Source: Clostridia bacterium
GTDB taxonomy: Bacteria; Bacillota; Clostridia; Lutisporales; Lutisporaceae
Direction of reading: 5' to 3'
Assembly: GCA_035628995.1 (NCBI GenBank)
Contig: DASPIR010000017.1
Span: forward strand, 4,651 to 68,650
DNA length: 64,000 nt
Part shown: positions 24,071 to 64,000 of the stretch, one piece after another
Layout: each line of letters opens with the position of its first letter
Position numbering within the stretch: position 1 is the stretch's first letter
Translations under genes and position numbers: made by a program
The notes under the pieces: generated by a model
What the model was told of the DNA's origin: nothing
The model's database searches: none
The model's input: the letters and a program-made list of their open reading frames with translations, nothing else

Positions 24071-24091
24071 GGATGCGGAGGGAAATGAACT

Positions 24092-24493: not shown

Positions 24494-24511
24494 AGAGAGG
24501 TAGAATGGAAT

Positions 24512-25174: not shown

Positions 25175-25199
25175 AGATGATGCTTAAGGAGATGAGGGC

Positions 25200-25838: not shown

Positions 25839-25848
25839 GAGGGGTAAT

Positions 25849-26520: not shown

Positions 26521-26569
26521 AAAATTATAATTGGTACTATACTAACGACATGGTAATGGGGGTATTTTA

Positions 26570-28902: not shown

Positions 28903-28915
28903 GGAGGAACCTGTA

Positions 28916-30674: not shown

Positions 30675-30720
30675 TGTCCTACATATATATTTGAACTTAT
30701 TTAGGAAAAGGAGGAGCCAA

Positions 30721-32148: not shown

Positions 32149-32237
32149 GCTCAAAACGGTGAAAGAAAGGAGGAGGGAAAACTACTGGCGGGTTATATCT
32201 AAATAGAAATAAATGAATTTAAGGGAGGTCAAAATTG

Positions 32238-33269: not shown

Positions 33270-33354
33270 GCTTCATGAATGTTGTTAGGAGAAAGAGGTA
33301 TTACTCCTCTTTCTCCTATTCTGGCAATGGAAGCTTTATATAAGGGGGTATACT

Positions 33355-33834
33355 ATGAATATCACATCCCATGCAAATCGAAAGAAACTAGTAGACAGAT
33401 TATTCACAATAGCAATTATCGTTCTCTTTACTATCGTTATTGTGATGACATTTTCATTATCCGAGACAGCGGGGAGTGTACCAAGACTAATCAGTATAAT
33501 TGGAATTGTACTATCTGTCATTACGCTAGTTAAAGACTTTAAACAAAATGATGGTAAACCAAAAAATAATGATGCTGCTTCGGATGAAAATCAGGGAATG
33601 TCTTTTATAAAGTGCTTTGGCTTGTTGATAGCATATTTAGCAGCAATGGTTGTATTGGGATTCGCTATATCCACCTGCCTAATGTTATTTTTTATACCGA
33701 TATTCCTGAAATACAGAAACCTTAAAATCAATATAATCTTCTCTGTTATAACAACAGCAGTTCTTTACTTTAGCTTCACATACTTATTCTACGTTCGCTT
33801 GCCGGTCGGTATTCTGTTCGAGTTATTTTTATAG
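33355..33834 (+). CDS. tctB: tripartite tricarboxylate transporter small membrane subunit (TctB family)
   Basis: 159 aa, 4 TM, positioned between tctC and tctA. Confidence 0.7.
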   Translation: MNITSHANRKKLVDRLFTIAIIVLFTIVIVMTFSLSETAGSVPRLISIIGIVLSVITLVKDFKQNDGKPKNNDAASDENQGMSFIKCFGLLIAYLAAMVVLGFAISTCLMLFFIPIFLKYRNLKINIIFSVITTAVLYFSFTYLFYVRLPVGILFELFL

Positions 33835-33846
33835 GGTGGTGAGATT

Positions 33847-35337
33847 ATGGAAAACATGATGTCTGCAATAACTAATATATTCTCTGTGACTAATGTGTTG
33901 TATTTGATTATCGGATCAGTAATTGGACTTGTCATTGGTGTGTTGCCTGGGTTGGGTCCGGTTTTTGGCACAGCTTTAGTATTACCATTTACTTTTGGTA
34001 TGAGTGCTGATTCAGCGTTAATTCTCCTGAGTGCAGTTTATGCATGTACTGCATATGGAGATGGTATTACTTCAATCCTCTTAAATGTGCCCGGTGGACC
34101 GGGAGGAGTGGCTCTTACATTTGACGGATATCCTCTTACACGTAAGGGTAGAGCGGCTGAAGCCCTGGGAGCTCTGGTTGGCTCATCCTTCATTGGCGGG
34201 TTAATAGGGGTTCTTGCATTAATATTTATTGCACCTCCTATGGCAGAGTTCTCATTAAAGATTGGGCCGGCTGAATATTTTATGCTTGCTATGTTTGGTT
34301 TATCAATGGTAGCTGTAGCCGGAAAGGGTGATACGGCAAAAGGACTCATTCTCGGCTGTTTGGGTTTGCTCTTTTCCTTTGTAGGGATGGATGTAATTAC
34401 AGGAGCAGAAAGGTTCACTTTCGGCAGTAATTTCTTAGAAGACGGGATATCGACTGTAAGTGCCACAATAGGACTGTTTGCCCTTTCTCAAGTGTTTATA
34501 CTTGCAGAAGAAGGCGGCACAATAGCAGGTGAATTTACTCTGGCAACTAAGCCCTGGAAAGGAATTAGTGCTACATTAAAGTACTGGTATGTTACATTAC
34601 GCTCATCTATACTCGGGGTTTGCATAGGCATGGTACCAGGAATAGGAATATCTACGGCTAGTATGTTGTCTTACGTAGCTGAGAAGAGGATGGCAAAAGA
34701 TCCTGAGACTTATGGAGAGGGTAATATTAGAGGTATTATTGCTCCTCAGGCAGCTTCAAATGCTTGTACAAGTGGAGAACTTATTCCTGCTTTCGCACTG
34801 GGAATACCGGGAGGTGCTACAGCTGCTATATTTTTGGCTGCAATGACCTTACATGGTCTCAGACCTGGTCTTAGTTTCTTTACATCAGGTGGTGTGTTGG
34901 TTGATACAGTTTTTCTGGGAATGATTTTGGCACAATTTGTTATTTTGTTTTTTGGATTAACAGCTACACCGCTATTGGCAAAAATCACAAAAGTTCCAAA
35001 TGCAATCTTAGTGCCAATAATTGTAGCTCTTTGTTTTGTAGGGGCATTCGCAGTAAATAATAATATTGAAGATGTGGTTGTTGCTATGGTTTTTGGAGTT
35101 ATAGGATATGTACTGTTCAAGAATAAATGGCCTGTACAGTGCCTAGTTCTTGGCTTGGTACTGGGTGAGATCGCTGAGAGCAACTTCCACCGTGCACTGC
35201 AAATCTCAGACGGATCATACGGCATATTTGTGCAGAAACCCATTTCTCTGATTTTATTTATTGCAATTATTGCAATTTTAGTGTGGACTTATTGTGGGGG
35301 CATAATTAAAGCAAAAATGCAAAATGCAAAAGCTTAA
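33847..35337 (+). CDS. tctA: tripartite tricarboxylate transporter large membrane subunit (TctA family)
   Basis: 496 aa polytopic protein (..GVLPGLGP..LNVPGGPG..GMVPGIG..). Confidence 0.85.
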   Translation: MENMMSAITNIFSVTNVLYLIIGSVIGLVIGVLPGLGPVFGTALVLPFTFGMSADSALILLSAVYACTAYGDGITSILLNVPGGPGGVALTFDGYPLTRKGRAAEALGALVGSSFIGGLIGVLALIFIAPPMAEFSLKIGPAEYFMLAMFGLSMVAVAGKGDTAKGLILGCLGLLFSFVGMDVITGAERFTFGSNFLEDGISTVSATIGLFALSQVFILAEEGGTIAGEFTLATKPWKGISATLKYWYVTLRSSILGVCIGMVPGIGISTASMLSYVAEKRMAKDPETYGEGNIRGIIAPQAASNACTSGELIPAFALGIPGGATAAIFLAAMTLHGLRPGLSFFTSGGVLVDTVFLGMILAQFVILFFGLTATPLLAKITKVPNAILVPIIVALCFVGAFAVNNNIEDVVVAMVFGVIGYVLFKNKWPVQCLVLGLVLGEIAESNFHRALQISDGSYGIFVQKPISLILFIAIIAILVWTYCGGIIKAKMQNAKA

Positions 35338-50050: not shown

Positions 50051-50686
50051 ATGGAGGTGATTGTTTTGGCGAGAATAACAAAGAATCCTGAAGAACGTAA
50101 GGCGGAGATTATGAATACTGCTGAAGTTCTGTTTTCTGAAAAGGGCTTCCGAAATGTAGCTGTCAGCGATATCGTTAAAAAAGTTGGGGTGGCACAAGGA
50201 ACCTTTTATTATTACTTCAAATCCAAAGAAGATCTGTTGAATCAAACTCTGGAGAGGCAGCTTGACGGCATAATGCAAACCGTGAGCTCAATAGCTGAAG
50301 GATCCGAGCTGGATGCACTGCAAAAGCTTCAAAGCATGCTGAAGATAGTCTTGCTTTCAGGCCTTGGGAGACAAAATATGACGGAACACATGGATAACAA
50401 TCAGGATAATGAGATGCACAGCAGACTTGAAGAAAAGTTTCACGGTAAGTTTTATCCTGTACTGCTTTATGTAATTGAACAGGGCATAAAAGAAGGATAT
50501 TTTGAATTGAATTCATATAAAGAGGTGACTCAGATACTTCTCTTGGGAATACAAGGCTACATGCATGCGATTTACCCATTATTAAAGGATAGGGAGACTG
50601 TAAACGAGAAGATGAAGGCCATAGAAGAGGTAATCGTGAATGTGTTGGGTTTGAAAAAAGGGAGTATACATATAACATTGGAATAG
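50051..50686 (+). CDS. TetR/AcrR-family transcriptional regulator
   Basis: ..RKAEIMNTAEVLFSEKGFRNVAVSDIVKKVGVAQGTFYYYFKSKEDL... The true start may be the in-frame TTG at 50066 behind GGAGGTG. Confidence 0.85.
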   Translation: MEVIVLARITKNPEERKAEIMNTAEVLFSEKGFRNVAVSDIVKKVGVAQGTFYYYFKSKEDLLNQTLERQLDGIMQTVSSIAEGSELDALQKLQSMLKIVLLSGLGRQNMTEHMDNNQDNEMHSRLEEKFHGKFYPVLLYVIEQGIKEGYFELNSYKEVTQILLLGIQGYMHAIYPLLKDRETVNEKMKAIEEVIVNVLGLKKGSIHITLE

Positions 50687-50696
50687 GGGAGATATT

Positions 50697-51473
50697 ATGA
50701 AAAATCAAAAAATTAGAAGGTTCATACTGCTATTATCATTTATTTTACTGCCTGCAACCTTGAATTATTTCTCGCCATACTTAATAATAGAGGGGCTGTT
50801 CGAAAAGGTGATAGGCGGCGCCTTTGTCATATGGCTGTTGTTCTTATTGAGCTCATTGGTGTTTGGGAGAGCAGCATGTTCGTATGTATGCCCATATGGA
50901 GGGCTGCAAATGCTAATTGATAAGTTTCACGGCAAGAGTCTGAAGCAAATAGCATGGCTCAGGTGGTTCAAATATGGATTGGGAGTTATCTGGATATCAG
51001 CGATTATCGTACCTTTAGTATTGGTAGGAGGGCAGAAGCAGTTCAATATGCTTTATATGACTGAGAATTTTGTCTCGGTGGATCATTGGGGCAAGCTGAT
51101 ATTTTACTATATGCTTATAACAATTCTTGCAATTATGCCTTTTATTTTAGGTAAAAGGGCAGTCTGCCACTATTTATGCCCAATGTCAATTTTAACTATC
51201 ACCGGCAGCAAGCTCTCTAACTGTTTGAACACACCCTCTCTTCACCTGACAGTAAGGAAGGATAAGTGCATCAAGTGCGGAAAGTGCAACAAAGCTTGTC
51301 CAATGAGTCTGGATGTAATGGGAATGGTTCAAAAAGGCAACATGAGAAACACCGAGTGTATATTATGCGGAGAGTGCTGCAGTGCTTGTGGCTGTGGTGT
51401 TCTTAGAAGAGAATTCGGCAGCAGAACAACAGTAAAAATTGGAGAAAACGAGAAGCTCGGCGCAGAGGTATAA
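50697..51473 (+). CDS. membrane-bound 4Fe-4S binding protein (NapH/MauN-like)
   Basis: Several TM segments with CxxxCP motifs (..ACSYVCPYG.., ..CHYLCPM..) and C-terminal CIKCGKCNKACP / CILCGECCSAC. Confidence 0.7.
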   Translation: MKNQKIRRFILLLSFILLPATLNYFSPYLIIEGLFEKVIGGAFVIWLLFLLSSLVFGRAACSYVCPYGGLQMLIDKFHGKSLKQIAWLRWFKYGLGVIWISAIIVPLVLVGGQKQFNMLYMTENFVSVDHWGKLIFYYMLITILAIMPFILGKRAVCHYLCPMSILTITGSKLSNCLNTPSLHLTVRKDKCIKCGKCNKACPMSLDVMGMVQKGNMRNTECILCGECCSACGCGVLRREFGSRTTVKIGENEKLGAEV

Positions 51474-51713: not shown

Positions 51714-53216
51714 GTAAATAATTTTGTGGGTAGGAAAGGACAGCGTCCTTTCTAGACAAGATTCGCCCGTATTTAGTTAGTTCTATTTTGTCAGAATCGC
51801 TCAATTTTATGTATGAAATTGGACGGTTCTGGCAATAATTTTATTAGACAAGATTATAAAAAAGACTCCGATAGAAGGCATGGGCGTCTGGCTGCTCGGC
51901 CTTTTATCATTTATGGCTATCTAAATATACTGAGTTACCTGATCTTCGAACATAATCATCAGATGATTCAAAACCTGGTCCCAGTCCCGGTATCTTTGGG
52001 TCCATTTTTTGAGGACGTTCCTGCTTGATAAATAAAGCATTTTTTCTAAGGCTGAGTCTGATGGAAAGACAGTCTTTGTCTTCGTTACCTTCCTGAATTG
52101 CCTATGTAAGCTTTCAATTATGCTGGTTGTGTAAATCATTTTACTGATACCCTCAGGGTACTTGAAGAATGGACTTAGAACATCCCAATTAGCCTCCCAG
52201 TTCCTTGTAGCATAAGGATATTGCTTGCCCCATTTACTGTTTACTTCACTCAGCTTCATTAAAGCAACCTCCTCATTTACAGCGGTATATACTGCTTTAA
52301 AATCCCTGGCAATTCTTTAAGATGTTTGTAGGATACATACTTGAAAGAGTTTCTAAGCTGGTGAATAATGCACCTTTGTATCTCGGCTTTTGGATATGCT
52401 GCCTGTATAGCTTCCTTAAGGCCACTCAGTCCATCAACGCTGAATATCAGTACATCTTGTACGCCTCTGTTCTTAAGCTCTGTCAAAACTCCAAGCCAAA
52501 ACTTTGAGGATTCATTTTCTCCTATCCATACGCCCAATATGTCTTTATTCCCTTCCAGGTCGATGCCTAATACCACATATGCAGCTCTGTTTAGAATATG
52601 TCCGTCCTCTCTAACCTTGTAATGTATGGCATCCATGAATATGAATGGGTACATGGGTTCAAGAGCTCTATTCTGCCATTCTTTTATTTCAGGGACAAGC
52701 CTTTCTGTGATTTTGCTGACCATTTCGGCAGATACTTCAATGCCCTATAGATCTTTGATTTGATCATGAATATCTCTTGTAGACATTCCGCGGGAGTAGA
52801 GGGAAATTATCTTTTCCTCCAAGCAGGATATATCCCTTTTGTATTTAGGAACTATTTTGGGCTCAAAATCGCCTTTTCGATCTCTGGGAATATTCAGTTC
52901 AAACTCTCCAAATTGGCTTTTTACAGTCTTTTGAGAGTGCCCATTACGCTCATTATCATCTCAATCAACTTCTCGTTCTTAGGATACCCAATCGATACAT
53001 CAAGCTCAGCTTCCAGCATTTCCTGGATAGTGTCTTTAAACAAATCTTTTAGATAGCCATAGATGTCACCTACGTTTTGAAATTGGTTCTCCTTAATCAT
53101 TTCCTTGGTAAAATTCTTTTGTATTGCGGTGCTCATAAAAAAGACTCCTTTCTGGCTTATATTTGATTCTTGCCAGAAAGGAGTTAACTTTTTCATTCAC
53201 CCACAGAATTATTTAC
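51714..53216 (-). mobile_element. IS256-family insertion sequence, decayed
   Basis: Terminal inverted repeats GTAAATAATTTTGTGGGT (51714-51731) and ACCCACAGAATTATTTAC (53199-53216) match 17/18. The interior encodes a broken IS256-type transposase. Confidence 0.8.
51921..53196 (-). pseudogene. IS256-family transposase, split by at least 2 frameshifts and 1 in-frame stop
   Basis: Three ORF pieces (52921-53196, 52277-52723, 51921-52259) carry N-terminal, DDE-core (..FMDAIHYKVRED..VDGLSGL..QRCIIHQLRN..) and C-terminal (..KWGKQYPYATRNW..) segments. There is an in-frame TAG at 52745-52747 (..IKDL*GIEVS..), and frameshifts near 52920 (A-run) and near 52300. Confidence 0.85.
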
Positions 53217-53373: not shown

Positions 53374-53763
53374 TTATTTTATTTTACCTCTAATAAAATT
53401 ATCTATCATTTTGATATCCGCTAAATCTTTTTCGCGCCCTAATTCAATTTTTTGTTTTTTTATACTCTCTAAGCTACCGACTGGGAAGCAATTAATATAT
53501 TCAATATGATCAACATTCCAATTTTCAAATACTTCTATAATATTATTAATTTTAAGGCTTCTTGAGTTATTACTAGATATTTTAACTTTGTGCCTCTGTA
53601 ATATAAGTTGCTCGAATAACTCATTGGTACAGCCTATATCAATGTCCCTGGTTTCATCTTTTACACCATGTATTACTAATCCAGCACCCGCTGTTATCCA
53701 ATATTCATCTATTGGTAAATTTAATTTATCCATAATATCAAATATTGACTCTCTATTAAGCAT
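53374..53763 (-). CDS. small nucleotidyltransferase-fold protein (Pol-beta superfamily)
   Basis: ..WITAGAGLVIHGVKDETRDIDIG.. (G-x-G..D-x-D type). ATG at 53763 follows GGAGGGG. 129 aa. Confidence 0.55.
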   Translation of the reverse strand: MLNRESIFDIMDKLNLPIDEYWITAGAGLVIHGVKDETRDIDIGCTNELFEQLILQRHKVKISSNNSRSLKINNIIEVFENWNVDHIEYINCFPVGSLESIKKQKIELGREKDLADIKMIDNFIRGKIK

Positions 53764-54159
53764 GAAAGACCCCTCCAAAATATTAAATAAAGGAATGCTA
53801 AAGTTCCAAATACTTAGACTGTTTTTATAATTATGCCTATCCAATATTGAATACATAACTAAACAATTGAATAAATAGGTAAACTACCATCATAATAACA
53901 AATTATAGTTTGTATTTCCACTTATGTTTATCAAAACATTATTGTAATTAATGAATGTATAGAAAATGAATACCGGAGAAATAGTTGTGATTCTAAATAA
54001 CTTTCAAGATTATAAAAAAAGCTGAGAATATCCTTTAATAAGTATATTCATTATAAAGATTAATACTCAATATATTTTTCAATTTATTAATATTGAAAGT
54101 TATTAAATAAGAAAACAAAAATGTAATAAACAAAACGACTTAAATGAAGGGAGAAAAGA

Positions 54160-55023
54160 ATGGAAGACTATAATAATAACTCATCACCATTAAGTGTATG
54201 TTGGAATATCACATCGGTTTGTAATGACAACTGTGAGTTTTGTTATCGTAACTCTAATTCCAAGATATTAAGTTTAGAAGAAAATAAAACTATTTTAAGA
54301 AAATTAATAAAAAGCGGAGTAAAAAAAATATCGTTGATTGGAGGAGAACCATTATTATATGATGGGCTCTTTGATTTAATAATGTTAGCACATGAAGCAG
54401 GAGTGGTAACATCCCTTACTACGAATGGGATTCTTTTAGATAAAGAAATACTAACAATTCTAGATAAGTGTCTTGATTGGTTGACTTTGTCTCTAGATGC
54501 ATCTAATGAGCAACTACAGACAAGGCTAACTCGTAATGAGAATCATTTTGAGAAAAATATTTCACTTCTTGAAATTATTAAAAGTAATAATTACTCAGTT
54601 AATATAAAAATTAATACCCTGGTAACAAAGATAAACAAACACGACGTTCCGAATATTACCAATATAATAAGAGAATATAATGTGAAAAGGTGGAAAATAT
54701 TTAGGTTTTTCCCAATTAGAGGACAAGCTATCGAGAATATCAGTAAATTTAATATTACAGATGATGATTATAATAGAATGAGAAAAGAAGTAACGTTAAT
54801 GAGAAGGTTCATCAAGGGATGTAATATATGCTTTGCTGATAAAGATACACTAAAGGACTCTTATTTTTTACTGTTCTCTGATGGAACCGTAATGAACTCA
54901 TGCAACGAACAAGATGTTATTGTCGGTAATTTATTAAGCGACGAGATAGCTGACATTTGGAGCAAAGAGTATTTTAACAAGAGCAGACACATAGAAGTGC
55001 ATGACTGGCTAATAAATGAATGA
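54160..55023 (+). CDS. viperin-family radical SAM enzyme (prokaryotic viperin-like)
   Basis: CNDNCEFC (CX3CX2C) at 54220-54243. Collinear with human viperin as recalled: SVCWNITSVCNDNCEFCY / SVNYHFTRQCNYKCGFCF; ISLIGGEPLL / INFSGGEPFL; SLTTNG / SIVSNG; KINTLV / KINSVI; VKRWKIFRFFPIRG / VRWKVFQCLLIEG; LKDSYFLL / MKDSYLIL. The 287-aa length is typical of pVips. Confidence 0.8.
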   Translation: MEDYNNNSSPLSVCWNITSVCNDNCEFCYRNSNSKILSLEENKTILRKLIKSGVKKISLIGGEPLLYDGLFDLIMLAHEAGVVTSLTTNGILLDKEILTILDKCLDWLTLSLDASNEQLQTRLTRNENHFEKNISLLEIIKSNNYSVNIKINTLVTKINKHDVPNITNIIREYNVKRWKIFRFFPIRGQAIENISKFNITDDDYNRMRKEVTLMRRFIKGCNICFADKDTLKDSYFLLFSDGTVMNSCNEQDVIVGNLLSDEIADIWSKEYFNKSRHIEVHDWLINE

Positions 55024-55056
55024 TAATTTAAATTGATAGAAAGTGAGAGAGCAAAT

Positions 55057-57210
55057 ATGGAAGTATTATCCCCAGCTGGTGATATGAATCAATTAATTGC
55101 AGGAGTGAAAGCTGGCTGTGATGCTGTTTATGGCGGACTTAAGCTTTGGAATGCAAGAAATAGAGCCAAAAATTTTACAATAGAAGAATACATTGATGCA
55201 GTGTCATATTGTAAAGAAAATAATGTTAAATTTTATCTTACTATCAATACTCTAATGTATGATAATGAAATAGATGAAATCATGAATGTATTAAAAGACG
55301 AGGAATTTATCTTGCCAGACGCTGTGATTGCATCAGACTTTGGACTTATAAAGGTTTTAACAAAGGAACTACCTCATTTGCATATACATGCATCAACACA
55401 GTTTGGTGCGCATTGTTTAGATGATATTACTTTCTTAGAAAAGCTCGGTATTAAGCGAATAATATTGTCTCGAGAACTTCTTATGGATGAAATTAAATAT
55501 CTTAAGTGCAATACTAGAAGTCAACTTGAAGTATTTGTATGGGGTGTGCAATGTATAGGTTTTTCAGGGATTTGTTATTGGGGATCTCTAGTTTTTGGCG
55601 GCAGTGGTAGTAGGGGTAAATGTCTTGCTCTTTGTAGAGATATATATAGTTTTAATAATAGAAAATGCAACTTTTTTTACTCTAAAGATTTAAAGGCTTT
55701 TTGTAAAGCACATGATTTGAATGAAATAGGAATTGATAGTATAAAAATTGAAGGTAGAAGAAGCCGTGATTATTCAGAAATCTATAATACAGTATCCGGT
55801 TTTAAAGAAGCATTAAATGCAAATTATCAGAGCGAAAACGTGGAAGTAAAGAACCCGTATTGCGGTTATCTAGAAAATAAGCTACCAGTAGAAGGTCTAA
55901 TAGAATTATGTAATGAAAGAAACATTGTCAGAAATATTCCATTTAGAGAAGTTGGACAACTTGATTTGATAGTTGTATCTAATGAACTAGGTGAACCAGG
56001 GTATATAAATGCAAGTGAATTAAATAAGAATGTAGGTACAGTAGGATTTGTAAAGAGTCGGATAACAAATAAGATTGTTCGAGGTAAAAGGAATTTTTCT
56101 ATAAATATTATGAGTAATCAAGAGGATATTATAAATTGTATTTATGTAATTGGAAACAAGGGAGAAGGGAAGATGTTTAGTTTGAAAACTGATCATGATT
56201 TAATTCAGAGTGATATCTATATTATTTATAGAGATATTTTAGATTCTCTGAATGGTAATACATTATCAGAACTGACTTTCCCCAAAACAATCGATTATAA
56301 GCTGAAATTTAATAAGAATGATTATGACCTTGTTATGAACTATATAAAAGAAAAATCAGCGATACCCAATATACATATAGAAAGAAATTCTATTAGTGAA
56401 AAAAAATATAATATTCTAAATGATGCCATATCGATAGAAGTAAATGATATAAACATGATTGCAGCATTGGATAAAGCTGGGGTTAACAGGATTATATATA
56501 ATATTAATAATATTGATGAATTAAGTATTGTTCTTGAACAGTATGGAACTTATCAAAATATCATATATAAGCTACCATATTTTGACTGGAAATCAGTAGG
56601 GGTAAAGCACCTTGCAAATCTGCTGAATAATCAAAATATAATGATTACACGGTTGTCGCAAATATCCATATTAGAATATGGGAAATTCAAATCTATGGAA
56701 GCAGATTATACTGTCCACTGCTGGAATAAAAGAACCATTAATTCCTTGATGGAATATGGAATAAATAGAATTACGTTATCACCAGAGATTTCCTTCGAAG
56801 ATGCTATAAAAGTTTTTAGTGATGTGAATATAAAATTAGAAATCATATTTGCTGGACATATACCACTTGCATATACACGACATTGTTTTGCTGAGAGTTT
56901 AAATTGTAATGCTGAGTGTAATAAAATAAAAGAACTAATTAATATTGATAAAGATATGAAGTTTATGATTAGATGCAGACAAAGTCACAGAGAAATATTT
57001 TATGAAAACCCCATTTTAGTGGATGTTAAAAACATAAGCACTTTACCAAATGGAACTACTTTTCGCTATATATGTAATATGCATAATCTTGAAGAATTAT
57101 TAAATAACATTCAAATAATGAAAAATGATCAACATTACTATGAGAAACTATTGCAAACAACGCTTTGGAGGAATAGCTATGTTGGTAATTTAAAGGAGAG
57201 TGTAAGGTAA
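55057..57210 (+). CDS. U32-family ('peptidase U32') Fe-S protein with two tandem U32-like modules
   Basis: N-terminus MEVLSPAGDMNQLIAGVKAGCDAVYGG... PROSITE-like E-x-F-x2-G-x2-C..G-x-C. C-x6-C-x15-C-x3-C at 55552-55635. A second TIM-like module in the C-terminal half carries ..EIIFAGHIPLAYTRHCFAESLNCNAEC... Confidence 0.8.
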   Translation: MEVLSPAGDMNQLIAGVKAGCDAVYGGLKLWNARNRAKNFTIEEYIDAVSYCKENNVKFYLTINTLMYDNEIDEIMNVLKDEEFILPDAVIASDFGLIKVLTKELPHLHIHASTQFGAHCLDDITFLEKLGIKRIILSRELLMDEIKYLKCNTRSQLEVFVWGVQCIGFSGICYWGSLVFGGSGSRGKCLALCRDIYSFNNRKCNFFYSKDLKAFCKAHDLNEIGIDSIKIEGRRSRDYSEIYNTVSGFKEALNANYQSENVEVKNPYCGYLENKLPVEGLIELCNERNIVRNIPFREVGQLDLIVVSNELGEPGYINASELNKNVGTVGFVKSRITNKIVRGKRNFSINIMSNQEDIINCIYVIGNKGEGKMFSLKTDHDLIQSDIYIIYRDILDSLNGNTLSELTFPKTIDYKLKFNKNDYDLVMNYIKEKSAIPNIHIERNSISEKKYNILNDAISIEVNDINMIAALDKAGVNRIIYNINNIDELSIVLEQYGTYQNIIYKLPYFDWKSVGVKHLANLLNNQNIMITRLSQISILEYGKFKSMEADYTVHCWNKRTINSLMEYGINRITLSPEISFEDAIKVFSDVNIKLEIIFAGHIPLAYTRHCFAESLNCNAECNKIKELINIDKDMKFMIRCRQSHREIFYENPILVDVKNISTLPNGTTFRYICNMHNLEELLNNIQIMKNDQHYYEKLLQTTLWRNSYVGNLKESVR

Positions 57211-57939
57211 ATGAGAAAAAAAAGTGAGTGGGGTAGTTCGCCGACCAGAATTTACAGGATTCTAAATAGATTAGAGAAGGAAAAAGATAGCTTTACTACA
57301 TGCATTGTTGGTTGCTCAGACGGCAAATTTGTTTTACCTTTCGCTCGGAAGAAACATTTTATAGTAGGATATGACATTGATAGAATTGCGCTATATGGTG
57401 GAAAAAAATTATTCCCAATAAAAAGAGATATTACCAAAAAATATGAATTTGAATCTACTGAAGGAATTGTTGGAAATAAAATTACTTCGTATAAAATACC
57501 AACAGAAGAAAGAGATATGACAGGTCTATTGCAGAAGATAAAGAAAGATGGGTTAGAAAAGTATGTAGAGATAAGATTATTAGATTTCTTTAAAAGCGAA
57601 GTTGATAAAAAATATGATTTAGTCTTTACAAGTTGTTCGTTACATTATAAAAATAATAATGCATTTTCGCTTGAGCAATTGATTAATAAATTAAAAGATG
57701 CAGTAGAAGTAGACGGGTATTTATATATAGACTATATGATGACTCTCTTTGATTATCCTACTTTTGAATCAGATTTATTCTGTAAACCGGAACAGATGAA
57801 AAGCTTTTTTGTAGATGAAGATTGGAAAGTTGAATATTATAGAGAAATGAAGAAACCAGTATTTGAAGCTGCTCATGTGGATTGTGTTTATGACCACTTT
57901 CACAGGTTTGGGTACTTGCTAGCTAAGAGGCTTAAATAA
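57211..57939 (+). CDS. class I SAM-dependent methyltransferase (TehB/TPMT-like)
   Basis: Motif I ..CIVGCSDGKFVLPFA.., post-I ..VGYDID.., motif II ..YDLVFTSCSLHY... Its ATG directly abuts the U32 stop (TAAATG). Confidence 0.7.
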   Translation: MRKKSEWGSSPTRIYRILNRLEKEKDSFTTCIVGCSDGKFVLPFARKKHFIVGYDIDRIALYGGKKLFPIKRDITKKYEFESTEGIVGNKITSYKIPTEERDMTGLLQKIKKDGLEKYVEIRLLDFFKSEVDKKYDLVFTSCSLHYKNNNAFSLEQLINKLKDAVEVDGYLYIDYMMTLFDYPTFESDLFCKPEQMKSFFVDEDWKVEYYREMKKPVFEAAHVDCVYDHFHRFGYLLAKRLK

Positions 57940-58062
57940 GAGTTATATCCAGCTATAGCTTCCGTATGATACCTTTTGCATATTAATATAAGATACTAAA
58001 CTTTATAAAGCCTAGTTACTAATAACAGCATAAGAATTATTCTGCTGATAAGGAGCAATATT

Positions 58063-59292
58063 ATGAATAATAAAAATTTACTTATCCTTTCTTTTGCTAG
58101 ACATAGGGAATTTGCTCTAAAAACTTTACTAAGAAAAGGCATTAGAATTCTTACCATCGATAATGTTTTCAATAGTAAAGTTGAGGTAGCCGATTATGTA
58201 TACTATATAAATAATAGAAGAGATTCGTCAGAGATGTTTCAAGCTGCTGTGGATTTTTACAAAAAAAGGAAGTTTGATGGTGTTTTTTCTTTCCTTGATA
58301 GTAGCACCATTACACTTGGCATGTTAAGTGATTATTTTGAGCTTAGTTATTTTAGTGAATCTGTTGGAAGAATATTATCAGACAAATATGAAGTAAGGAA
58401 GTTCTTGCAAAAGATTGGTGCAAATAGACTTTTGTTTTTTAGTGTAAAGTCTGAAGCTGAGCTATATAAAGCTGCTGAAACTATAGGATTCCCTTTTGTA
58501 TTGAAGCCAAGATGTAGAAGTGCTGGAGAGGGAGTAGTAGTTATAAATAATAAACAAGAAATGTTATCTTCATATAAGCAAGTACTGCAAGCTGCTAAAT
58601 CTCAAGACCTAATTGCTGAGGAATACATTTGCGGAGATGAGTACTGTGCTGAGACTCTTATTTATAATGGTGAAGTTTATGTATTAGCAGTAACAAAGAA
58701 GTATGTAACACATGATAGGTATTGCATAGAGTATATTGAATTAACACCAGCTCCAATTCAAACTAATTTATGGAATAAGATTAGTGATTTCGTGAGGCAT
58801 ACTATTTCTGAATTTGGCATACAGAATGCTGTATTGCATATAGAACTAAAAGTCAATCAAAGCGATGAAGTCAGGCTAATTGAAATAAATCCAAGACCCG
58901 CTGGGAATAACATTATTGAATCTATATATAAAACTAAACAATTAAATCTATATGACTATGCATACGATATTGCCCTTAAAAAACCTATAGATGTTAATAA
59001 GCTAAAGCAACAAATGGACAAGCCATTTATTAGATATGCTCTAACTTACGATTTTCTAAATCCAACGTGTGAAGGAAAAATCAAAGAAATAAGTGGAATT
59101 AGGGATGCAATTTCAATGTTGGAACATGATTGTGAAAAGTTAACACTGAAATATAAAGTAGGAGACCTTCTGCCATTACCTAAGTCAAACAACGAAGTCA
59201 GGGGTTCAATATACCTTGTAGATAAAGATTACCACAGGATTATTAAAAGATCAGAGGAGATTGAAAACGTACTCCATTTTGAATTAGAATAA
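58063..59292 (+). CDS. ATP-grasp ligase 1
   Basis: ..DKYEVRKFLQKIG..GFPFVLKPRCRSAGEGVVVI..HIELKVNQSDEVRLIEINPRPAG... Confidence 0.75.
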   Translation: MNNKNLLILSFARHREFALKTLLRKGIRILTIDNVFNSKVEVADYVYYINNRRDSSEMFQAAVDFYKKRKFDGVFSFLDSSTITLGMLSDYFELSYFSESVGRILSDKYEVRKFLQKIGANRLLFFSVKSEAELYKAAETIGFPFVLKPRCRSAGEGVVVINNKQEMLSSYKQVLQAAKSQDLIAEEYICGDEYCAETLIYNGEVYVLAVTKKYVTHDRYCIEYIELTPAPIQTNLWNKISDFVRHTISEFGIQNAVLHIELKVNQSDEVRLIEINPRPAGNNIIESIYKTKQLNLYDYAYDIALKKPIDVNKLKQQMDKPFIRYALTYDFLNPTCEGKIKEISGIRDAISMLEHDCEKLTLKYKVGDLLPLPKSNNEVRGSIYLVDKDYHRIIKRSEEIENVLHFELE

Positions 59293-59405
59293 GCTGAAAA
59301 TAATTATAAGAGTTACTATTTGCATAAATCGATAGTAATTTTAAACTATTAGGTTTGTATTGGTTTACAGCTATATTATAAATATTTTTATTAAGAGGGA
59401 TTACG

Positions 59406-60452
59406 ATGATTGAAAAATTAGAAAATTTACGAAAAGAAATTGACAAAATTAATGTTAATTTACTAGATTTACTAAATAAAAGAACCGAGTTAGTGCAAGA
59501 AATTAGCACTTTGAAAGATGGGCTCAATAGTGAATACTTTGACCCTGTAAGAGAAAAGCAAATGCTAGATAACATTATAGGGCAAAATAGAGGACCTCTG
59601 CAAAACGAATCTGTCAGAACGATTTTCTATAATATATTTAGAACATCACTTAATATTATGGGATCTGTAAAAGAAAAGAGACTACTTGTTGGTGCAGGTA
59701 GTGATATTGCATTTGAGAGAATTAATGAAATGTTCGATTTACCCATTAATAGCAAAGTCATAATAGCAGGACCATGTGCTGTGGAAGAATTTGAACAACT
59801 AGATCAAATTGCTCAATTAATTAAGAGTAAAGGCCTAAAATTTTTAAGGGGAGGTGCATATAAGCCCAGAACATCGCCCTATGATTTTCAAGGGAAAAGG
59901 GAAAATGGGGTAAGAATGTTATATGAGGTAGGAAGAAAATATGATCTGAAAACTGTGACAGAGGTTGTAGATACAAGAGATGTTGAACTTGTATCTAAAC
60001 ATGTTGACATTTTACAGATTGGTGCGAGAAATATGACAAATTTTGAGCTTCTTAAAGAAGTAGGAAAGATTAATAAGCCAGTAATATTGAAGCGAGGAAT
60101 GAATGCAAAAATTGATGAATTTATATTTGCAGCTGAATATATTGCTCTTCAAGGTAATAGAAAAATAATACTTTGCGAACGAGGAATCAGGACTTTTGAA
60201 ACCAAAACACGGAATACACTTGATATCAGTAGTATTCCTATACTAAAAAAAGAAACAAATCTTCCAGTAATAGTAGATTTAAGCCACTCTTTAGGACGAA
60301 AAGATATAATAAATGATGTCGCCAAAGCCGTTGTTGCTGTTGGAGCAGAAGGTATAATGGTTGAGGTTCATCCATATCCACATCTTGCTTTATCTGATGC
60401 AGAACAACAATTAAATCCAGAAGAATTTTTAAGCTTACTTAAGCTTATTTGA
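59406..60452 (+). CDS. bifunctional chorismate mutase (AroQ) / 3-deoxy-7-phosphoheptulonate (DAHP) synthase, type I-beta
   Basis: N-terminal CM helix bundle (..[26 protein letters not shown]..) followed by ..[46 protein letters not shown].., as in the B. subtilis AroA(G) architecture. Confidence 0.85.
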
Positions 60453-60537
60453 TTTTATATTTCACTAATATTAGAAGCTGCGATATATTGTGCTAGTTAA
60501 TAGATTCTGTACAGCAATCATATTGGGAGGGAATACA

Positions 60538-61392
60538 ATGACAAAAGGATTCATAGAAACGGAAATAAAGATTCTTAATATAGATGTTAACTTTGTAATA
60601 AGTAGACTTCAAAAGGTAGGAGCAGTTTTTATAGAAGAAAATATACAGAAGATATATACATATGATGTAAATCCAATATCAACTACTTATAAGAGTTTAC
60701 TTTTTGAGCTAAACGAAAAAAGATACAATATTAAAAATGAAGATATCTTATTAAAAAGAATCAATGCAGTATTTTCAGATATGGATCATATTATCAACGA
60801 TAAAGATAGAGAAAAGTTTTATAAAATTACTAATTATTTTAGTATGCAGGAGTTTTCTAAAAGCATAAAAAAGATTGATAGTTCAATTATTAAGTTATTG
60901 AACGAAGACAGTCTAATCTCAATTATTAACTCATATTATATCAATCCTGGTAAATGGATTAGATTAAGGGAAACTGGTAATGAAGTAACAATAACAGTAA
61001 AGCAAAAAATAGGTAATAATAAAGTAAATAGTGACAATAAATATCAAATCGATAGCATAAGGGAGATTGAAGTTAAAGTTGATAGTCTTGAGAAAGGCAA
61101 TTTGCTATTATCAGAGTTAGGCTTCTTCTATAGAAATTATCAAGAAAAGAAGCGAATTAGCTATTTATACAAAGATAAAATAAGTATTGATATCGACTTC
61201 TGGCCTTTTATTCCGCCATATATAGAAATTGAGGGTGAGAATAAAGATGAAATATACGAAGTAGCGAGAATGCTTGGATATGGAAATGATGAAATAAAAG
61301 TGATGAATACTGATGAAGTATATTTAATTTATGGTATTAATATTTATGATTATAAAGAACTTAAGTTGGATAGACCTCTTATGCAATTATAA
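60538..61392 (+). CDS. CYTH-domain protein (triphosphate tunnel metalloenzyme / class IV cyclase fold)
   Basis: N-terminal ExExK signature (ETEIKIL), ..WIRLRETGNEVTITVKQK.. and ..ISIDIDFWPFIPPYIEIEGE... A ~90-aa insertion follows the first strands. ATG at 60538 follows GGGAGGG. Confidence 0.65.
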   Translation: MTKGFIETEIKILNIDVNFVISRLQKVGAVFIEENIQKIYTYDVNPISTTYKSLLFELNEKRYNIKNEDILLKRINAVFSDMDHIINDKDREKFYKITNYFSMQEFSKSIKKIDSSIIKLLNEDSLISIINSYYINPGKWIRLRETGNEVTITVKQKIGNNKVNSDNKYQIDSIREIEVKVDSLEKGNLLLSELGFFYRNYQEKKRISYLYKDKISIDIDFWPFIPPYIEIEGENKDEIYEVARMLGYGNDEIKVMNTDEVYLIYGINIYDYKELKLDRPLMQL

Positions 61393-61568
61393 TTATTCGT
61401 TTACTGTTCTAATATCATTACAGAAAAATGCACTTATTTATACAAGTTACTATTCAACTAGATAGTTTGATAAAATTATATGGGATATTATAACTTATTG
61501 TAACTATAGTTATGTTGAAGCTTAGGAGTGAACTGTAAAGTATGAGACTTGAAGTGGGGGAGAGAATA

Positions 61569-62783
61569 ATGACGGAAAAAAGATTAATTTTAGTCGGAAG
61601 TGGTTCTAGAAGGTATAGGAGTTATATTGTTGATGCGGCTGTGTCTATGGGAATCAAAATCACACTGCTTACTGATAAAGTTGTTAGATGGGAAAAAGAT
61701 CTCTGTGATAATATACTATTCGTTAATATTAGAGATGCTGAAGCTATGCAACAAAGACTTTATGAATTAATGGGAGCTATTAAGTTTGACGGTATAATTA
61801 CATATGACGAAGAATTGGTAATACCGACAGCGGAGTTAGCCCAGAGGCTAGGACTCCGATATATAAAACCCGAAACCGCTGTTGCAGCAAGAAATAAATA
61901 TGTAATGCGTTCTAAGTTAAAGGAAAACAGAATTAGAGTACCTGAATTCGTAAAAATTAGTGATGTTGAAGATTTTAAAAAAGCAATTTCAATAATGAAT
62001 TTTCCAGTAGTAATAAAACCAATTGACGGTCATAGTAGCATTGGCGTTATCAAAATAGAAACAAAGGAAGTTGCCTATAGAGTATTTGAAAATGTAACAC
62101 ATATAAAAATAAATGGGAGAAGTCAAAACACATTCATTCTTGAGGAATACGTTAAGGGAAAAGAAATAAGTGTAGAATCTTTGGTATATGAAAATGAAAT
62201 ACTTCATTTTGGGATTACACAAAAGTATACTAGCTCAGAACCATATTTCGAAGAAATAGGCCATTCTTTTCCGGCAAATATATCTCAAAGTTTAAGAGAT
62301 GAGATAATAAGTATTGTAGAAAAAGGAATTAGGGCACTCGGAATTAATATTGGGGCAACACACACAGAATTGAGATTAACGAGTGAAGGACCAGTAATTA
62401 TAGAAATTGGAGCTCGATTAGGAGGAGATAGAATACCTTATCTTGTTTATCTTGCAACTGGTGCAAATATGGCTCAAGAAACTATCAAAGTTGCATTGGG
62501 GATAAAACCCAGTATAGACATTCTATATAATCGCGGTGCGGCAATACGATTCATCATTCCGTATAAGTGTGGAGAAATAGTTGAATATCCTAATCTTGAC
62601 AAAGCATCAAACTATCCCGGAATATGTGAAGTTAGTTTCAAGGAGCAGGTTGGTCAAATAAAATTGCCACCAGAAGGGTTTTTTACACGTTTTGGGTTTG
62701 TTATAGCTATAGCAGATCAAGCAAATGAGGCATATCAGAAAGCCTGTGAAGCAGAAAAACTCATAGTTATTAATATACAATAA
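61569..62783 (+). CDS. ATP-grasp ligase 2
   Basis: ..NKYVMRSKLKENRIRVP..NFPVVIKPIDGHSSIGV..HTELRLTSEGPVIIEIGARLGGDRI... ATG at 61569 follows GGGGAG. Confidence 0.75.
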   Translation: MTEKRLILVGSGSRRYRSYIVDAAVSMGIKITLLTDKVVRWEKDLCDNILFVNIRDAEAMQQRLYELMGAIKFDGIITYDEELVIPTAELAQRLGLRYIKPETAVAARNKYVMRSKLKENRIRVPEFVKISDVEDFKKAISIMNFPVVIKPIDGHSSIGVIKIETKEVAYRVFENVTHIKINGRSQNTFILEEYVKGKEISVESLVYENEILHFGITQKYTSSEPYFEEIGHSFPANISQSLRDEIISIVEKGIRALGINIGATHTELRLTSEGPVIIEIGARLGGDRIPYLVYLATGANMAQETIKVALGIKPSIDILYNRGAAIRFIIPYKCGEIVEYPNLDKASNYPGICEVSFKEQVGQIKLPPEGFFTRFGFVIAIADQANEAYQKACEAEKLIVINIQ

Positions 62784-62820
62784 GGGGGGGCAACTTTCTG
62801 AATTATTTCAGAATAAAAGT

Positions 62821-63792
62821 ATGATTGCGATTAATGTAGATAACATAACTAGGAAGTATAAAAGTACAAATATATGGGGGCAACTAAAAAGTGAACACAT
62901 AGCCGTTGATAATGTTTCTTTTGATATAAAGAAGGGAGAACTATTTGGCCTATTAGGCCCAAATGGTGCGGGTAAAACTACTATCATAAAAATGCTTACA
63001 ACTCTACTTTTGCCAACATCAGGAACAGCACACATCATGAATTATGATATTCGGAAAGATATGCAAAGAATAAGGGCTATTATTAATTTTACTTTTGGAG
63101 GAGATAGAGGGTTATATTGGAGACTTTCTGCTAGGGATAATCTTAGATATTTTGCTGATTTATATAATGTTGAACGAGGTATTGCTGATAAAAGAATAAA
63201 TGAGATATTAGAGCTTATTGGAATGACAAAATGGGCAGATGATAGAGTAGAAAATTACTCTAAAGGAATGAAGCAACGGTTACACATAGGAAAAGTATTG
63301 ATAAATAATCCGGATATTATTTTTTTTGACGAACCAACATTAGGGTTAGACCCTGTTGGTGCTAAGGATCTAAGAAAAATAATTGTAGATCTACTAGAAT
63401 TAGATAAAACAATACTTCTTACAACTCATTATATGTTCGAAGCAGACATGCTGTGTAATAGGGTGGCTATTATAAATCACGGAAAAATTATTGCAAATGA
63501 TAGGCCAGGGGAATTGAAGAAGTTGCTTAAGGATGATGTAGTGTTAGAAATTGAAGTATATGGAGCTACAAAAGAGAGACTAGATGATATAAAAAAACTT
63601 GAATGTGTTGAAAGTCTAAATGTAAAGCAAGTGGAACAAAGTCAATTAATTCAAATACAACTTAAAGAAAATAATGAAATCATCAATCAAATTCTGAACA
63701 TCCTTAACGATGTTCAGATAAAAGAAATTAGAAACAGAAAACCTACACTGGAAGATGTTTATATTAAACTAGTAGGTGGGATAAATGAATAA
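62821..63792 (+). CDS. ABC transporter ATP-binding protein (ABC-2 / DrrA-like exporter type)
   Basis: Walker A GPNGAGKTT, signature YSKGMKQRL, Walker B IIFFDEPTLGLD. Confidence 0.9.
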   Translation: MIAINVDNITRKYKSTNIWGQLKSEHIAVDNVSFDIKKGELFGLLGPNGAGKTTIIKMLTTLLLPTSGTAHIMNYDIRKDMQRIRAIINFTFGGDRGLYWRLSARDNLRYFADLYNVERGIADKRINEILELIGMTKWADDRVENYSKGMKQRLHIGKVLINNPDIIFFDEPTLGLDPVGAKDLRKIIVDLLELDKTILLTTHYMFEADMLCNRVAIINHGKIIANDRPGELKKLLKDDVVLEIEVYGATKERLDDIKKLECVESLNVKQVEQSQLIQIQLKENNEIINQILNILNDVQIKEIRNRKPTLEDVYIKLVGGINE

Positions 63793-64000
63793 AATAATTC
63801 ATATTGCAAAAATTCAACTTGTTATGAGAACAACAAGTCAACTTTGGCGTTTCATAATTTTTATTCAACCGATTTTATATTTAATGATGACATTATTTAT
63901 GATGAATGGATCAATGAGAACCCAATATAGCATGGATGCAGTATTAGGTGCAGGAATGATGGGCACATGGAGTTCAATTCTTTTTTCTTCAGGCTCAGAT
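63785..64000 (+). CDS. ABC-2-type transporter permease, N-terminal part (runs off the window)
   Basis: The ATG at 63785 overlaps the ATPase stop by 8 nt. Hydrophobic sequence ..LWRFIIFIQPILYLMMTLF..GAGMMGTWSSILF... Confidence 0.7.
   Translation, partial: MNKIIHIAKIQLVMRTTSQLWRFIIFIQPILYLMMTLFMMNGSMRTQYSMDAVLGAGMMGTWSSILFSSGSD

Follow-up and report, generated by a model that had tools for sequence, protein, structure and literature searches.

A viperin-like radical SAM enzyme leads a low-GC gene island in a clostridial genome that may encode a nucleotide-tailoring pathway

Prokaryotic viperins (pVips) are radical S-adenosylmethionine (SAM) enzymes that have been described as one- or two-gene units, with a nucleoside monophosphate (NMP) kinase as the classical partner, like eukaryotic viperin with CMPK2. 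In the literature searched, the only hint at a link to a CYTH protein comes from four uncharacterised eukaryotic fusions of viperin to a 'triphosphatase or cyclase' domain (COG1437), which are a precedent for a viperin-CYTH connection (bioRxiv 10.1101/2023.09.13.557418). No account was found there that links viperin with U32 proteins, prephenate, ATP-grasp ligases or a CYTH operon partner. Here, we describe a viperin-like radical SAM gene that leads a gene cluster in a 64,000-nucleotide stretch (hereafter the window) of contig DASPIR010000017.1 from a member of the Clostridia (Lutisporaceae; assembly GCA_035628995.1). The unit is a ten-gene, ~11.2-kb, low-GC island that has transposase remnants at both borders and is acquired. 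In addition to the viperin-like enzyme it encodes a two-part U32 Fe-S protein, a methyltransferase-like protein, a bifunctional chorismate mutase/3-deoxy-D-arabino-heptulosonate 7-phosphate (DAHP) synthase, a CYTH-type triphosphate-tunnel enzyme, two ATP-grasp ligases and an ABC-2 exporter. A preliminary description of this DNA had known of no described system with this architecture, and none came to light in the literature searched. The locus holds a nucleotide system of the viperin family to which a conserved tailoring module, so far undescribed, has been added, and in the window functions for conjugation and export as well. The system is genuine, recurs in other genomes and has so far gone unannotated; its product and biological role we infer from its genes.

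The lead enzyme resembles viperins over its full length. The PADLOC pVip model matches it from end to end with 170 bits, the top nine sequence matches in the PDB are all viperins, and the blasticidin S radical SAM enzyme BlsE, the next-best solved relative, and MoaA rank behind them. A profile of the family (41 homologues) reaches 150-166 bits on viperins versus 92 on MoaA, in an alignment that extends through the C-terminal extension. The AlphaFold model (predicted local distance difference test, pLDDT, 94.5) was matched by Foldseek to the mouse viperin-CTP complex 6q2p with a template-modelling (TM) score of 0.84 and a root-mean-square deviation of 2.4 Å over ~285 columns; the top 11 matches are viperins only, and the partial barrel is closed by the viperin-specific C-terminal extension. 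C21, C25 and C28 of the CxxxCxxC motif and G61-G62-E63 (GGE) are invariant in the 41 homologues. The RWKIF (residues 177-181) and KDSYFLL (232-238) stretches, on which the preliminary description had based a viperin-like C-terminal half, are present. Moreover, K56, R125, K150, N152, R177, K179 and Y235 align with mouse K120, R194, K220, N222, R245, K247 and Y302, of which we take the first six to be triphosphate contacts and the last to be the catalytic-site tyrosine of the viperin-CTP structure. In fold, motifs and aligned residues the enzyme is thus like the pVips and eukaryotic viperin; it differs from the described ones in standing in a 10-gene operon and in having CWN instead of N-x-H.

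In a bootstrapped neighbour-joining (NJ) tree all viperin-like proteins together are split from MoaA (100/100). The window protein and its counterparts from two loci, L004 and L005, form a branch of their own (92/100), apart from a larger CYTH-linked branch (61/100); the deep nodes of this tree are weak. The lead enzyme is a member of a sister family of viperins, here named 'CWN-type', and not a canonical viperin. Proteins of this type have already been counted as 'viperins' in a survey based on hidden Markov models (HMMs; Supplementary Table 2 of bioRxiv 10.1101/2023.09.13.557418). Our genome scan used the pattern CW[ND]IT, by which the prevalence of the motif among the retrieved loci was selected for. 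In the larger, U32-linked branch (L039, L040, L064, L067, L068, L073, L079, L080, L084) the positions aligned with K120 and R245 are occupied by Ser, Asp, Ala, Asn, Glu or Gly, and the branch of the window protein therefore has the most viperin-like pocket. Loci of the larger branch also carry a second methyltransferase and an MBL-fold hydrolase resembling Apyc1 and RNase Z, and their substrate may be other than a plain nucleoside triphosphate (NTP). A single evolutionary origin of the U32 linkage was considered and is unsupported by the tree (9/100).

The core of the island recurs in other genomes. This was seen in a forward test, which covered 80 reference-genome loci encoding relatives of the lead enzyme and the contigs of its closest homologues, and in a reciprocal test, a metagenome scan seeded with the two-part U32 family. 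U32, methyltransferase-like and CYTH genes accompany viperin-like genes in >30 loci besides the window. The two closest relatives of the lead enzyme (52% and 45% identity) are from L004, with CYTH, viperin-like, U32, methyltransferase-like and DAHP synthase genes, and L005, with ligase, CYTH, viperin-like, U32 and methyltransferase-like genes. In the forward test all four genes of the core (U32, methyltransferase-like, viperin-like and CYTH) stand together in nine reference genomes, with a tenth truncated at a contig end; nine further ones have CYTH and viperin-like genes only, and in ~60 loci the viperin-like gene is without these partners. Such partnerless genes often lie among ToxN, MazF, recombinase or LysR genes, or with DUF4062 and Gre-like genes, or beside genes for a reverse transcriptase and a dCTP-deaminase-like protein. 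Where U32, methyltransferase-like and viperin-like genes occur together in viperin-seeded loci, CYTH is present as well (12/12). The reciprocal test gave viperin-like and methyltransferase-like genes in 21 of 23 loci with full-length U32, both exceptions being contigs that end right after U32; CYTH is found in 19 of the 21 viperin-bearing loci, a thymidylate-kinase-like NMP kinase in nearly all and DAHP synthase in six. None of the ~50 loci with an ordinary single-domain U32 gene in this test has any partner gene.

Full-length, colinear relatives of the island U32 fall into ~50 clusters at 50% identity in a representative library, and, outside the window, nine loci (L004, L067, L068, L142, L144, L146, L149, L155, L161) have a DAHP synthase homologue within the module. 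The recurrence of the core in dozens of independent loci argues that the gene arrangement is not a chance juxtaposition, and we consider it probable that this core is a pathway tailoring free nucleotides. The module is absent from viral contigs, where no close relative was found, and a phage-borne origin was rejected on this ground.

The closest described counterparts of the second gene are U32 hydroxylases. UbiU/V-dependent hydroxylation in anaerobic ubiquinone synthesis takes its oxygen from prephenate, for which the chorismate mutase domain of PheA alone suffices as supply, and TrhP, which forms 5-hydroxyuridine (ho5U) in tRNA, and RlhA, which forms 5-hydroxycytidine (ho5C) in rRNA, both depend on Fe-S and prephenate; of the twelve U32 subfamilies the majority have yet to be characterised, and an in vitro assay is lacking (PMC10990095, PMC5727448). 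Hydroxylation may be followed by methylation, as in the conversion of ho5U to 5-methoxyuridine (mo5U) or uridine 5-oxyacetic acid (cmo5U) and in the action of UbiUV and then UbiG (PMC10990095, PMC5727448, PMC6599085). The island U32 is matched by Pfam Peptidase_U32 (PF01136) in two stretches. Its N-terminal half is like TrhP/UbiU, with TrhP as best NCBIfam match, and its C-terminal half is like UbiV; together the halves look like UbiU and UbiV fused into one protein, or like those RlhA homologues that have a second U32 motif. Counted from the TTG start (55033), C174, C181, C197 and C201 as well as C618, C625, C629 and C648 are the same in all 12 homologues, and these four-cysteine motifs have the C-x6-C spacing of the essential RlhA residues Cys169 and Cys176. 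All equivalog scores are far under their cut-offs (TrhP 158 bits versus 534, UbiU 135 versus 440, UbiV 59 versus 275), DUF3656, the hallmark of RlhA, is not matched in the island protein, and no solved relative of it was detectable by sequence. The island U32 is a separate subfamily and a putative O2-independent, prephenate-dependent hydroxylase. Unlike in the described U32 hydroxylases, the gene context here points to a free nucleotide and not to RNA or a prenylated phenol.

The link of this protein to prephenate is one of genomic linkage, through the chorismate mutase-DAHP synthase in the window and the DAHP synthases in the nine related loci. Both domains of the window enzyme are present (CM_2 67.5 bits, DAHP_synth_1 260 bits). 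The module DAHP synthases elsewhere are 44-53% identical to it and, where ORFs were called (270-286 aa; L004, L067, L068), are without the chorismate mutase domain. Since U32 hydroxylases take their oxygen from prephenate, the clustered chorismate mutase-DAHP synthase finds an explanation as prephenate supply. The evidence points to this role for an enzyme to which the preliminary description had assigned none, and the prephenate dependence of the U32 hydroxylases would be mirrored in the gene cluster. A dedicated prephenate supply encoded beside a U32 gene is not described in the U32 papers PMC10990095, PMC5727448 and PMC6599085.

The gene for the methyltransferase-like protein starts directly after the stop codon of the U32 gene, with zero gap, and both are co-conserved in every complete locus. 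The protein passes only the cut-off of TehB (23.5 bits versus 20.4); with four other methyltransferase models, Methyltransf_31 (25.6 bits versus 27) among them, it falls short. It has a motif-I-like VGCSDGK; a PDB sequence match at E below 0.1 was not obtained.

CYTH is the commonest partner of viperin-like genes among the loci surveyed. In 38 sequences of the CYTH family E23, E25 and K27 (ExExK), R158, R160, K171, E192, E194, E246 and E248 are invariant. Pfam CYTH (PF01928) does not match the window protein itself but matches 10 of 17 relatives (E up to 5e-9), and the family profile matches the archaeal triphosphate tunnel metalloenzyme (TTM) SaTTM (7ns8) at 9e-13. The structural model (pLDDT 86.6) has an eight-stranded tunnel fold, and the top 35 Foldseek matches are all CYTH/TTM proteins with target-normalised TM scores of up to 0.80. 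Like SaTTM, the class IV adenylyl cyclase CyaB and thiamine triphosphatase, the island protein has ExExK, paired residues (Arg, Lys and Glu) and a tunnel fold; unlike these, it has a helical insertion of ~85 residues (63-147). This CYTH variant is a distinct subfamily that keeps company with NTP-using or pyrimidine-C5-modifying enzymes and also with ligases and exporters.

CYTH variants of this kind were also seen in other settings. In Paenibacillus solani (GCA_050475945.1; L092, 5226-11819) the gene lies with two glycosyltransferase genes, an ABC-2 exporter and a radical SAM gene; the latter was considered as viperin-like but rejected as MoaA-like. Bacillus wiedmannii (GCA_004331875.1; L090, 4515-13640) has two ATP-grasp genes, an unknown gene, a major facilitator superfamily (MFS) exporter, the CYTH variant, a nucleotidyltransferase and a NAGPA-domain gene, and no radical SAM gene. 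Both are cultured isolates and could be tractable model organisms for the CYTH partner. In three metagenome loci, L218 (7851-10843), L219 (6288-9280) and L222 (3969-6929), the insertion-bearing CYTH gene is combined with genes for a thymidylate-synthase-family protein (~330 aa) and an unannotated 345-382 aa protein with a hydrophobic N-terminus; in L222 the unit is near a serine recombinase. This may be another pyrimidine-nucleotide-modifying or defence module. A nucleotide as substrate of the viperin-linked module is favoured because nearly all sister modules include an NMP kinase and because the CYTH variant occurs beside a gene for a MoaA-like, GTP-using enzyme and beside thymidylate-synthase-family genes, whose products modify pyrimidine C5.

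The remaining genes of the island encode ligases and an exporter; within the single operon-like block the ligase genes are intermingled with those of the core. The L-amino-acid ligase (LAL) architecture, i.e. ATP-grasp and LAL C-terminal domains above the Pfam cut-offs, is found in ligase 2 (LAL_C2 37.9 bits, cut-off 29.4) and is partial in ligase 1 (LAL_C2 only 21.1 bits). Ligase 2 matches the L-amino acid ligase BL00235 at 2e-33 and also RizA and BacD; the nearest solved structures of ligase 1 are 4dim and BL00235. The scores of the ligases are far under the BacD and DdaF cut-offs. One orthologue of ligase 2 was found (45% identical), adjoining the CYTH and viperin-like genes in L005. The ABC ATPase passes the DrrA1-3_C cut-off of 27.4 bits and scores 297 bits with TIGR01188, slightly under the cut-off of 312. 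The two ABC-2 permeases (257 and 278 aa; L002, 10965-11738 and 11738-12574) match ABC2_membrane with 49 and 71 bits, above cut-off.

This combination recalls two groups of antibiotic gene clusters. Blasticidin S, with its radical SAM enzyme BlsE, nikkomycin and polyoxin, with their ATP-grasp ligases, and the pacidamycin-type 3'-deoxy-4',5'-enamino-uridine compounds are examples of peptidyl-nucleosides. The island is like their clusters in its logic, namely a sugar-altered nucleotide scaffold, ATP-dependent ligation of amino acids and export by a resistance-type pump. It is unlike them in that it has no orthologous gene, that its chemistry is anaerobic (radical SAM and U32) and that the host belongs to uncultured gut-type Clostridia and is not an actinomycete. 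The second group are the dipeptide antibiotics made by L-amino-acid ligases (bacilysin with BacD, dapdiamide with DdaF, rhizocticin with RizA), with which ligase 2 shares the ATP-grasp plus LAL_C2 architecture. Bacilysin also draws on prephenate; the island, in contrast, is without prephenate-tailoring enzymes of the BacA type or similar, and its ligase genes are interleaved with those of nucleotide enzymes.

From these data the following pathway can be proposed, in which the sequence of the first four steps is left free. The viperin-like enzyme would bind an NTP and perform radical chemistry at the ribose, most likely the dehydration to a 3'-deoxy-3',4'-didehydro (ddh) nucleotide, as suggested by its fold and the aligned triphosphate contacts. 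The two-part U32 protein would hydroxylate the base without O2, most plausibly at pyrimidine C5 as TrhP and RlhA do on RNA, with oxygen from prephenate, and the chorismate mutase-DAHP synthase would drive carbon into the shikimate pathway and yield this prephenate. The methyltransferase-like protein could then cap the new hydroxyl, giving a 5-methoxy group; of all steps this one has the weakest family assignment. Cleavage of the triphosphate by CYTH would detoxify the chain terminator in the producer and release a nucleoside or nucleotide scaffold, to which the two L-amino-acid-type ligases may attach one or two amino acids via ATP-dependent amide or ester bonds. Finally, the DrrAB-type ABC-2 pump would export the product and hence also serve self-protection. 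The product would then most likely be a pyrimidine nucleoside of the ddh type that is oxygenated at C5, dephosphorylated, amino-acylated and exported. Folds, motifs, conserved residues and gene linkage are what the analysis shows; from them we infer which reactions occur, in which order, on which base and at which position acylation takes place. To the whole chain, an anaerobic pathway to a tailored pyrimidine nucleoside that is built on viperin-type chemistry and, in this lineage, conjugated with amino acids and exported, we assign a probability of roughly 45%.

It is tempting to go further and to see here the first natural-product-type pathway on viperin chemistry, leading to a secreted peptidyl C5-oxygenated ddh-pyrimidine nucleoside that acts as chain-terminator prodrug against competing bacteria or phages, with the U32 protein as the first of its family to hydroxylate a free nucleotide and with a dedicated prephenate supply, which would furnish the tractable in vitro system that the study of prephenate-dependent hydroxylation has long wanted. 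In this full form the idea is doubtful.

Several findings weigh against the proposed pathway. With NCBIfam NF038283 the lead enzyme scores 166.4 bits, under the curated equivalog cut-off of 180; canonical Asgard and Bacteroidota viperins reach 285 and 299, and nine other CWN-type proteins 134-150. In the NJ tree it falls outside the canonical viperin clade (100/100), which was represented by mouse, Nematostella, T. virens, six Asgard viperins with experimental IDs in Shomar et al. and one Bacteroidota viperin, and not by the bacterial pVips that Bernheim et al. (2021) validated. C14 and N16 of C14-W15-N16 replace mouse N77 and H79; N-x-H precedes the cluster cysteines in all 12 canonical sequences except a T. 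virens paralogue with N-x-F, of which the PDB has an F40H variant. The claim of the preliminary description that the enzyme is a viperin homologue thus stands at the level of superfamily and fold, with the aligned triphosphate residues kept, but not for the canonical clade, and N77 and H79 are replaced. As a consequence of the sub-cut-off score, the place outside the clade of tested viperins and these replacements, synthesis of a ddhNTP can only be put forward as probable, and the reaction may not be the classical dehydration. In the beta8 loop the counterparts of mouse C314 and K319 are S247 and D252, which match none of the pocket types described (Cys/Lys, Arg, Asn or Asp; bioRxiv 10.1101/2023.09.13.557418), and from this sequence alignment the base specificity is not readable. 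Given the changes at the K120 and R245 positions in the larger branch, some members of these modules may not bind a triphosphate.

The downstream steps meet objections of their own. A free nucleotide has not yet been shown to be a substrate of any U32 enzyme, and a direct reconstitution of hydroxylase activity has yet to be achieved (PMC10990095). Of the family assignments in the cluster, that of the methyltransferase is marginal and the weakest. None of the related loci in the forward and reciprocal tests has a counterpart of ligase 1 or of the exporter, and most sister modules are without an exporter but have a nucleotide kinase and a Gre-factor-like protein, a content that looks more like an intracellular, defence-type system. 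Amino-acylation and secretion are the least secure step. The conservation of the neighbourhood that had been expected earlier was therefore found for U32, the methyltransferase-like protein, CYTH and, in a subset, DAHP synthase, and not for the ligases and exporter, of which only ligase 2 recurs, in one relative. Of the decorated, possibly amino-acylated and secreted product that had been envisaged, the amino-acylated and secreted part is limited to this lineage because ligases and exporter are not co-conserved with the core.

The cluster could instead be an elaborated pVip, i.e. an intracellular anti-phage or anti-plasmid system, in which the base of a chain-terminating nucleotide made by the viperin-like enzyme is modified by the U32 and methyltransferase-like proteins to evade phage counter-measures or host enzymes, CYTH limits self-toxicity, and the ligases and the ABC transporter are immunity add-ons or unrelated. 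The pVip HMMs do match the lead enzyme, close CWN-type relatives have the toxin, recombinase, reverse transcriptase and DUF4062 neighbours listed above, sister U32 modules carry NMP kinase and Gre-like genes and no exporter, and the island is borne by a mobile element and patchy in distribution. The window cluster, however, has no kinase, sensor or other defence gene, PADLOC gave only generic ABC and methyltransferase matches for the neighbours, and two L-amino-acid ligases and a complete DrrAB-type exporter share the same operon-like block. In addition, one prephenate spent per product molecule and a DAHP synthase of its own suggest bulk production and not an infection-triggered burst, and viral contigs lack the module. 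Of the alternatives this is the strongest, but we regard it as rather unlikely; the role of the cluster may be that of an antibiotic or of defence.

Still less probable is a mosaic of two pathways, in which the nucleotide-modifying core (viperin-like, U32, methyltransferase-like, CYTH) stands beside a ligase-based peptide antibiotic module as in bacilysin or dapdiamide, with the chorismate mutase-DAHP synthase serving an aromatic or prephenate-derived amino acid and the exporter its release. Shikimate-pathway genes often raise precursor supply in peptide gene clusters, ligase 2 resembles dipeptide ligases of the BacD, DdaF and RizA type, B. wiedmannii combines two ATP-grasp genes, MFS exporter and CYTH variant without a radical SAM gene, and the lack of co-conservation between core and ligases or exporter would be expected. 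But the genes are not sorted in this way: ligase 1 lies between the methyltransferase-like gene and DAHP synthase, and CYTH between DAHP synthase and ligase 2. DAHP synthase recurs in ligase-free core modules (nine loci), the ligase-2 orthologue of L005 adjoins the CYTH and viperin-like genes, and Pfam and NCBIfam scans revealed no enzyme in the cluster that would convert prephenate or chorismate to a non-proteinogenic amino acid. RNA as the target is very improbable. The U32 and methyltransferase-like proteins would then make mo5U via ho5U, or ho5C, like TrhP with TrmR or like RlhA, in a translation-tuning island whose radical SAM enzyme acts on RNA or a cofactor. This would agree with tRNA U34 and 23S rRNA C2501 as the substrates of the only characterised nucleic-acid-directed U32 enzymes and with TrhP as best match of the N-terminal half. 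It does not agree with the scores far under the TrhP, UbiU and UbiV cut-offs and the missing DUF3656, with the strict linkage of this U32 subfamily to the viperin-like enzyme, CYTH and NMP kinase, all enzymes of free nucleotides, or with a patchily distributed low-GC island between transposases.

Some of the related loci have features that are worth mentioning in this connection. Gre-factor-like proteins (GreA/GreB C-terminal domain) are encoded beside CWN-type genes in L007 (7424-8110), L225 (2479-3165), L039 (6592-7119), L068 (5836-6372), L079 (12216-12707) and many of L139-L161; the copy in L039 aligns with full-length GreA (44 bits). They occur in two architectures, a triad of DUF4062, viperin-like and Gre-like genes and the U32 module; the window has no Gre-like gene. 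Such a factor could free host RNA polymerase that has stalled on a transcript ending in a chain terminator, and if so, this would indirectly support a chain terminator as product. In L223 (337-4283) and L224 (163-4109) a 43%-identical CWN-type gene is directly downstream of genes for a reverse transcriptase and a dCTP-deaminase-like (DCD) protein, a trio that is of the defence type and centred on pyrimidine nucleotides. A CYTH-adjacent viperin-like gene in L220 (6845-7666) is split into ORFs of 182 and 72 aa, by a frameshift in a pseudogene or by an assembly error.

The coordinates of the island genes are compiled in Table 1. The preliminary description had reported nine co-directional genes in an AT-rich block (54160-64000); all nine plus-strand open reading frames (ORFs) are found in the ORF listing of the window, the GC content is 30.9% in the cluster versus 40.6% across the remaining window, and the family assignments hold. 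GC falls from the transposase pseudogene at the left border onward. The block is operon-like, with intergenic gaps of 0-149 bp; a convincing internal terminator was not found within the cluster, promoter and terminator scans were at chance level, and an Rfam scan of the cluster gave no riboswitch, leader RNA or other regulatory RNA. The end of the cluster had been expected past 64000. On the source contig (L002) it runs 1.4 kb beyond the window, to the equivalent of window position 65394; the cluster ends there with two ABC-2 permease genes and is followed by a DDE transposase fragment and then by unrelated sugar-utilisation genes. By exact-protein look-up the same locus was found on a 188-kb ENA metagenome contig and a 13-kb Logan contig. 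The NCBI protein records, HYF82452.1 onward, bear generic names only.

Table 1 Genes of the island and its left border in the window.
Feature	Position	Strand	Support
Viperin-like radical SAM enzyme, CWN-type, 287 aa	54160..55023	+	Best matches are viperin models
Two-part U32 Fe-S protein, 717 aa	55057..57210 (alternative TTG start 55033)	+	Pfam Peptidase_U32 173 bits
Divergent class-I methyltransferase-like protein, 242 aa	57211..57939	+	Marginal Pfam support
ATP-grasp ligase 1, L-amino-acid-ligase-like, 409 aa	58063..59292	+	ATP-grasp_4 85.8 bits
Bifunctional chorismate mutase/DAHP synthase, 348 aa	59406..60452	+	NF009239 487 bits, cut-off 279
CYTH/triphosphate-tunnel enzyme, 284 aa	60538..61392 (alternative GTG start 60490)	+	ExExK motif, predicted fold
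ATP-grasp ligase 2, L-amino-acid ligase type, 404 aa	61569..62783 (alternative start 61542)	+	ATP-grasp_4 83 bits and LAL_C2
DrrA-type ABC transporter ATPase, 323 aa	62821..63792	+	ABC_tran 108 bits, DrrA1-3_C 30.3 bits
First ABC-2 permease, start only in window	63785..64000	+	Complete on source contig
Left border: fragmented Mutator/IS256-type transposase pseudogene	51921..52723	-	Transposase_mut 176 and 56 bits, two adjacent ORF fragments

Upstream of the cluster and divergent from it is a small ORF (53374-53856, minus strand) of 160 aa, called as 129 aa, that accompanies the cluster on each of the two contigs. Pfam, NCBIfam and PADLOC gave no family match for it. By eye, a G-x-G ... D-I-D-I pattern recalls minimal nucleotidyltransferases (lincosamide or aminoglycoside), and the ORF could be a resistance or regulatory gene. 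The genes at 50051-51473 (plus strand), a TetR-family regulator (by eye) and a membrane 4Fe-4S ferredoxin-type protein, lie before the transposase remnants of the left border; their GC content is like that of the host, and they are probably part of the flank and not of the island. At 22802-35337 (plus strand) there is an unrelated co-directional cluster with genes for aconitase X, two RraA-like aldolases, a dihydroorotate-dehydrogenase-like Fe-S protein, an isocitrate/isopropylmalate-type dehydrogenase, an aconitase-family protein, a UbiD-family decarboxylase and TctC/TctA tricarboxylate transporter subunits. Its content suggests a pathway for the utilisation of tricarboxylates or aromatic acids. 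Housekeeping genes of the aromatic pathway were not found elsewhere in the 64-kb window, the string at 22.8-35 kb being a tricarboxylate utilisation cluster.

The finding joins two active fields, antiviral nucleotides and prephenate-dependent hydroxylation. The core of viperin-like, CYTH, U32, methyltransferase-like and usually kinase genes is present in dozens of gut and rumen genomes, in which defence-system finders see 'pVip' only; this is a blind spot of annotation. If a U32 protein acts on a soluble nucleotide and has its prephenate source next to it, O2-independent, prephenate-dependent hydroxylation would become directly testable; the known substrates, ribosome precursors, tRNA and prenylated phenols, are awkward. 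Chain terminators against viruses or bacteria would find a new lead in a modified ddh-nucleoside. If the proposed pathway is true, viperin chemistry, so far an antiviral device of a single enzyme, would become a scaffold that is tailored in several steps and might also serve gut anaerobes, a group little explored for natural products, in making secreted antibiotics.

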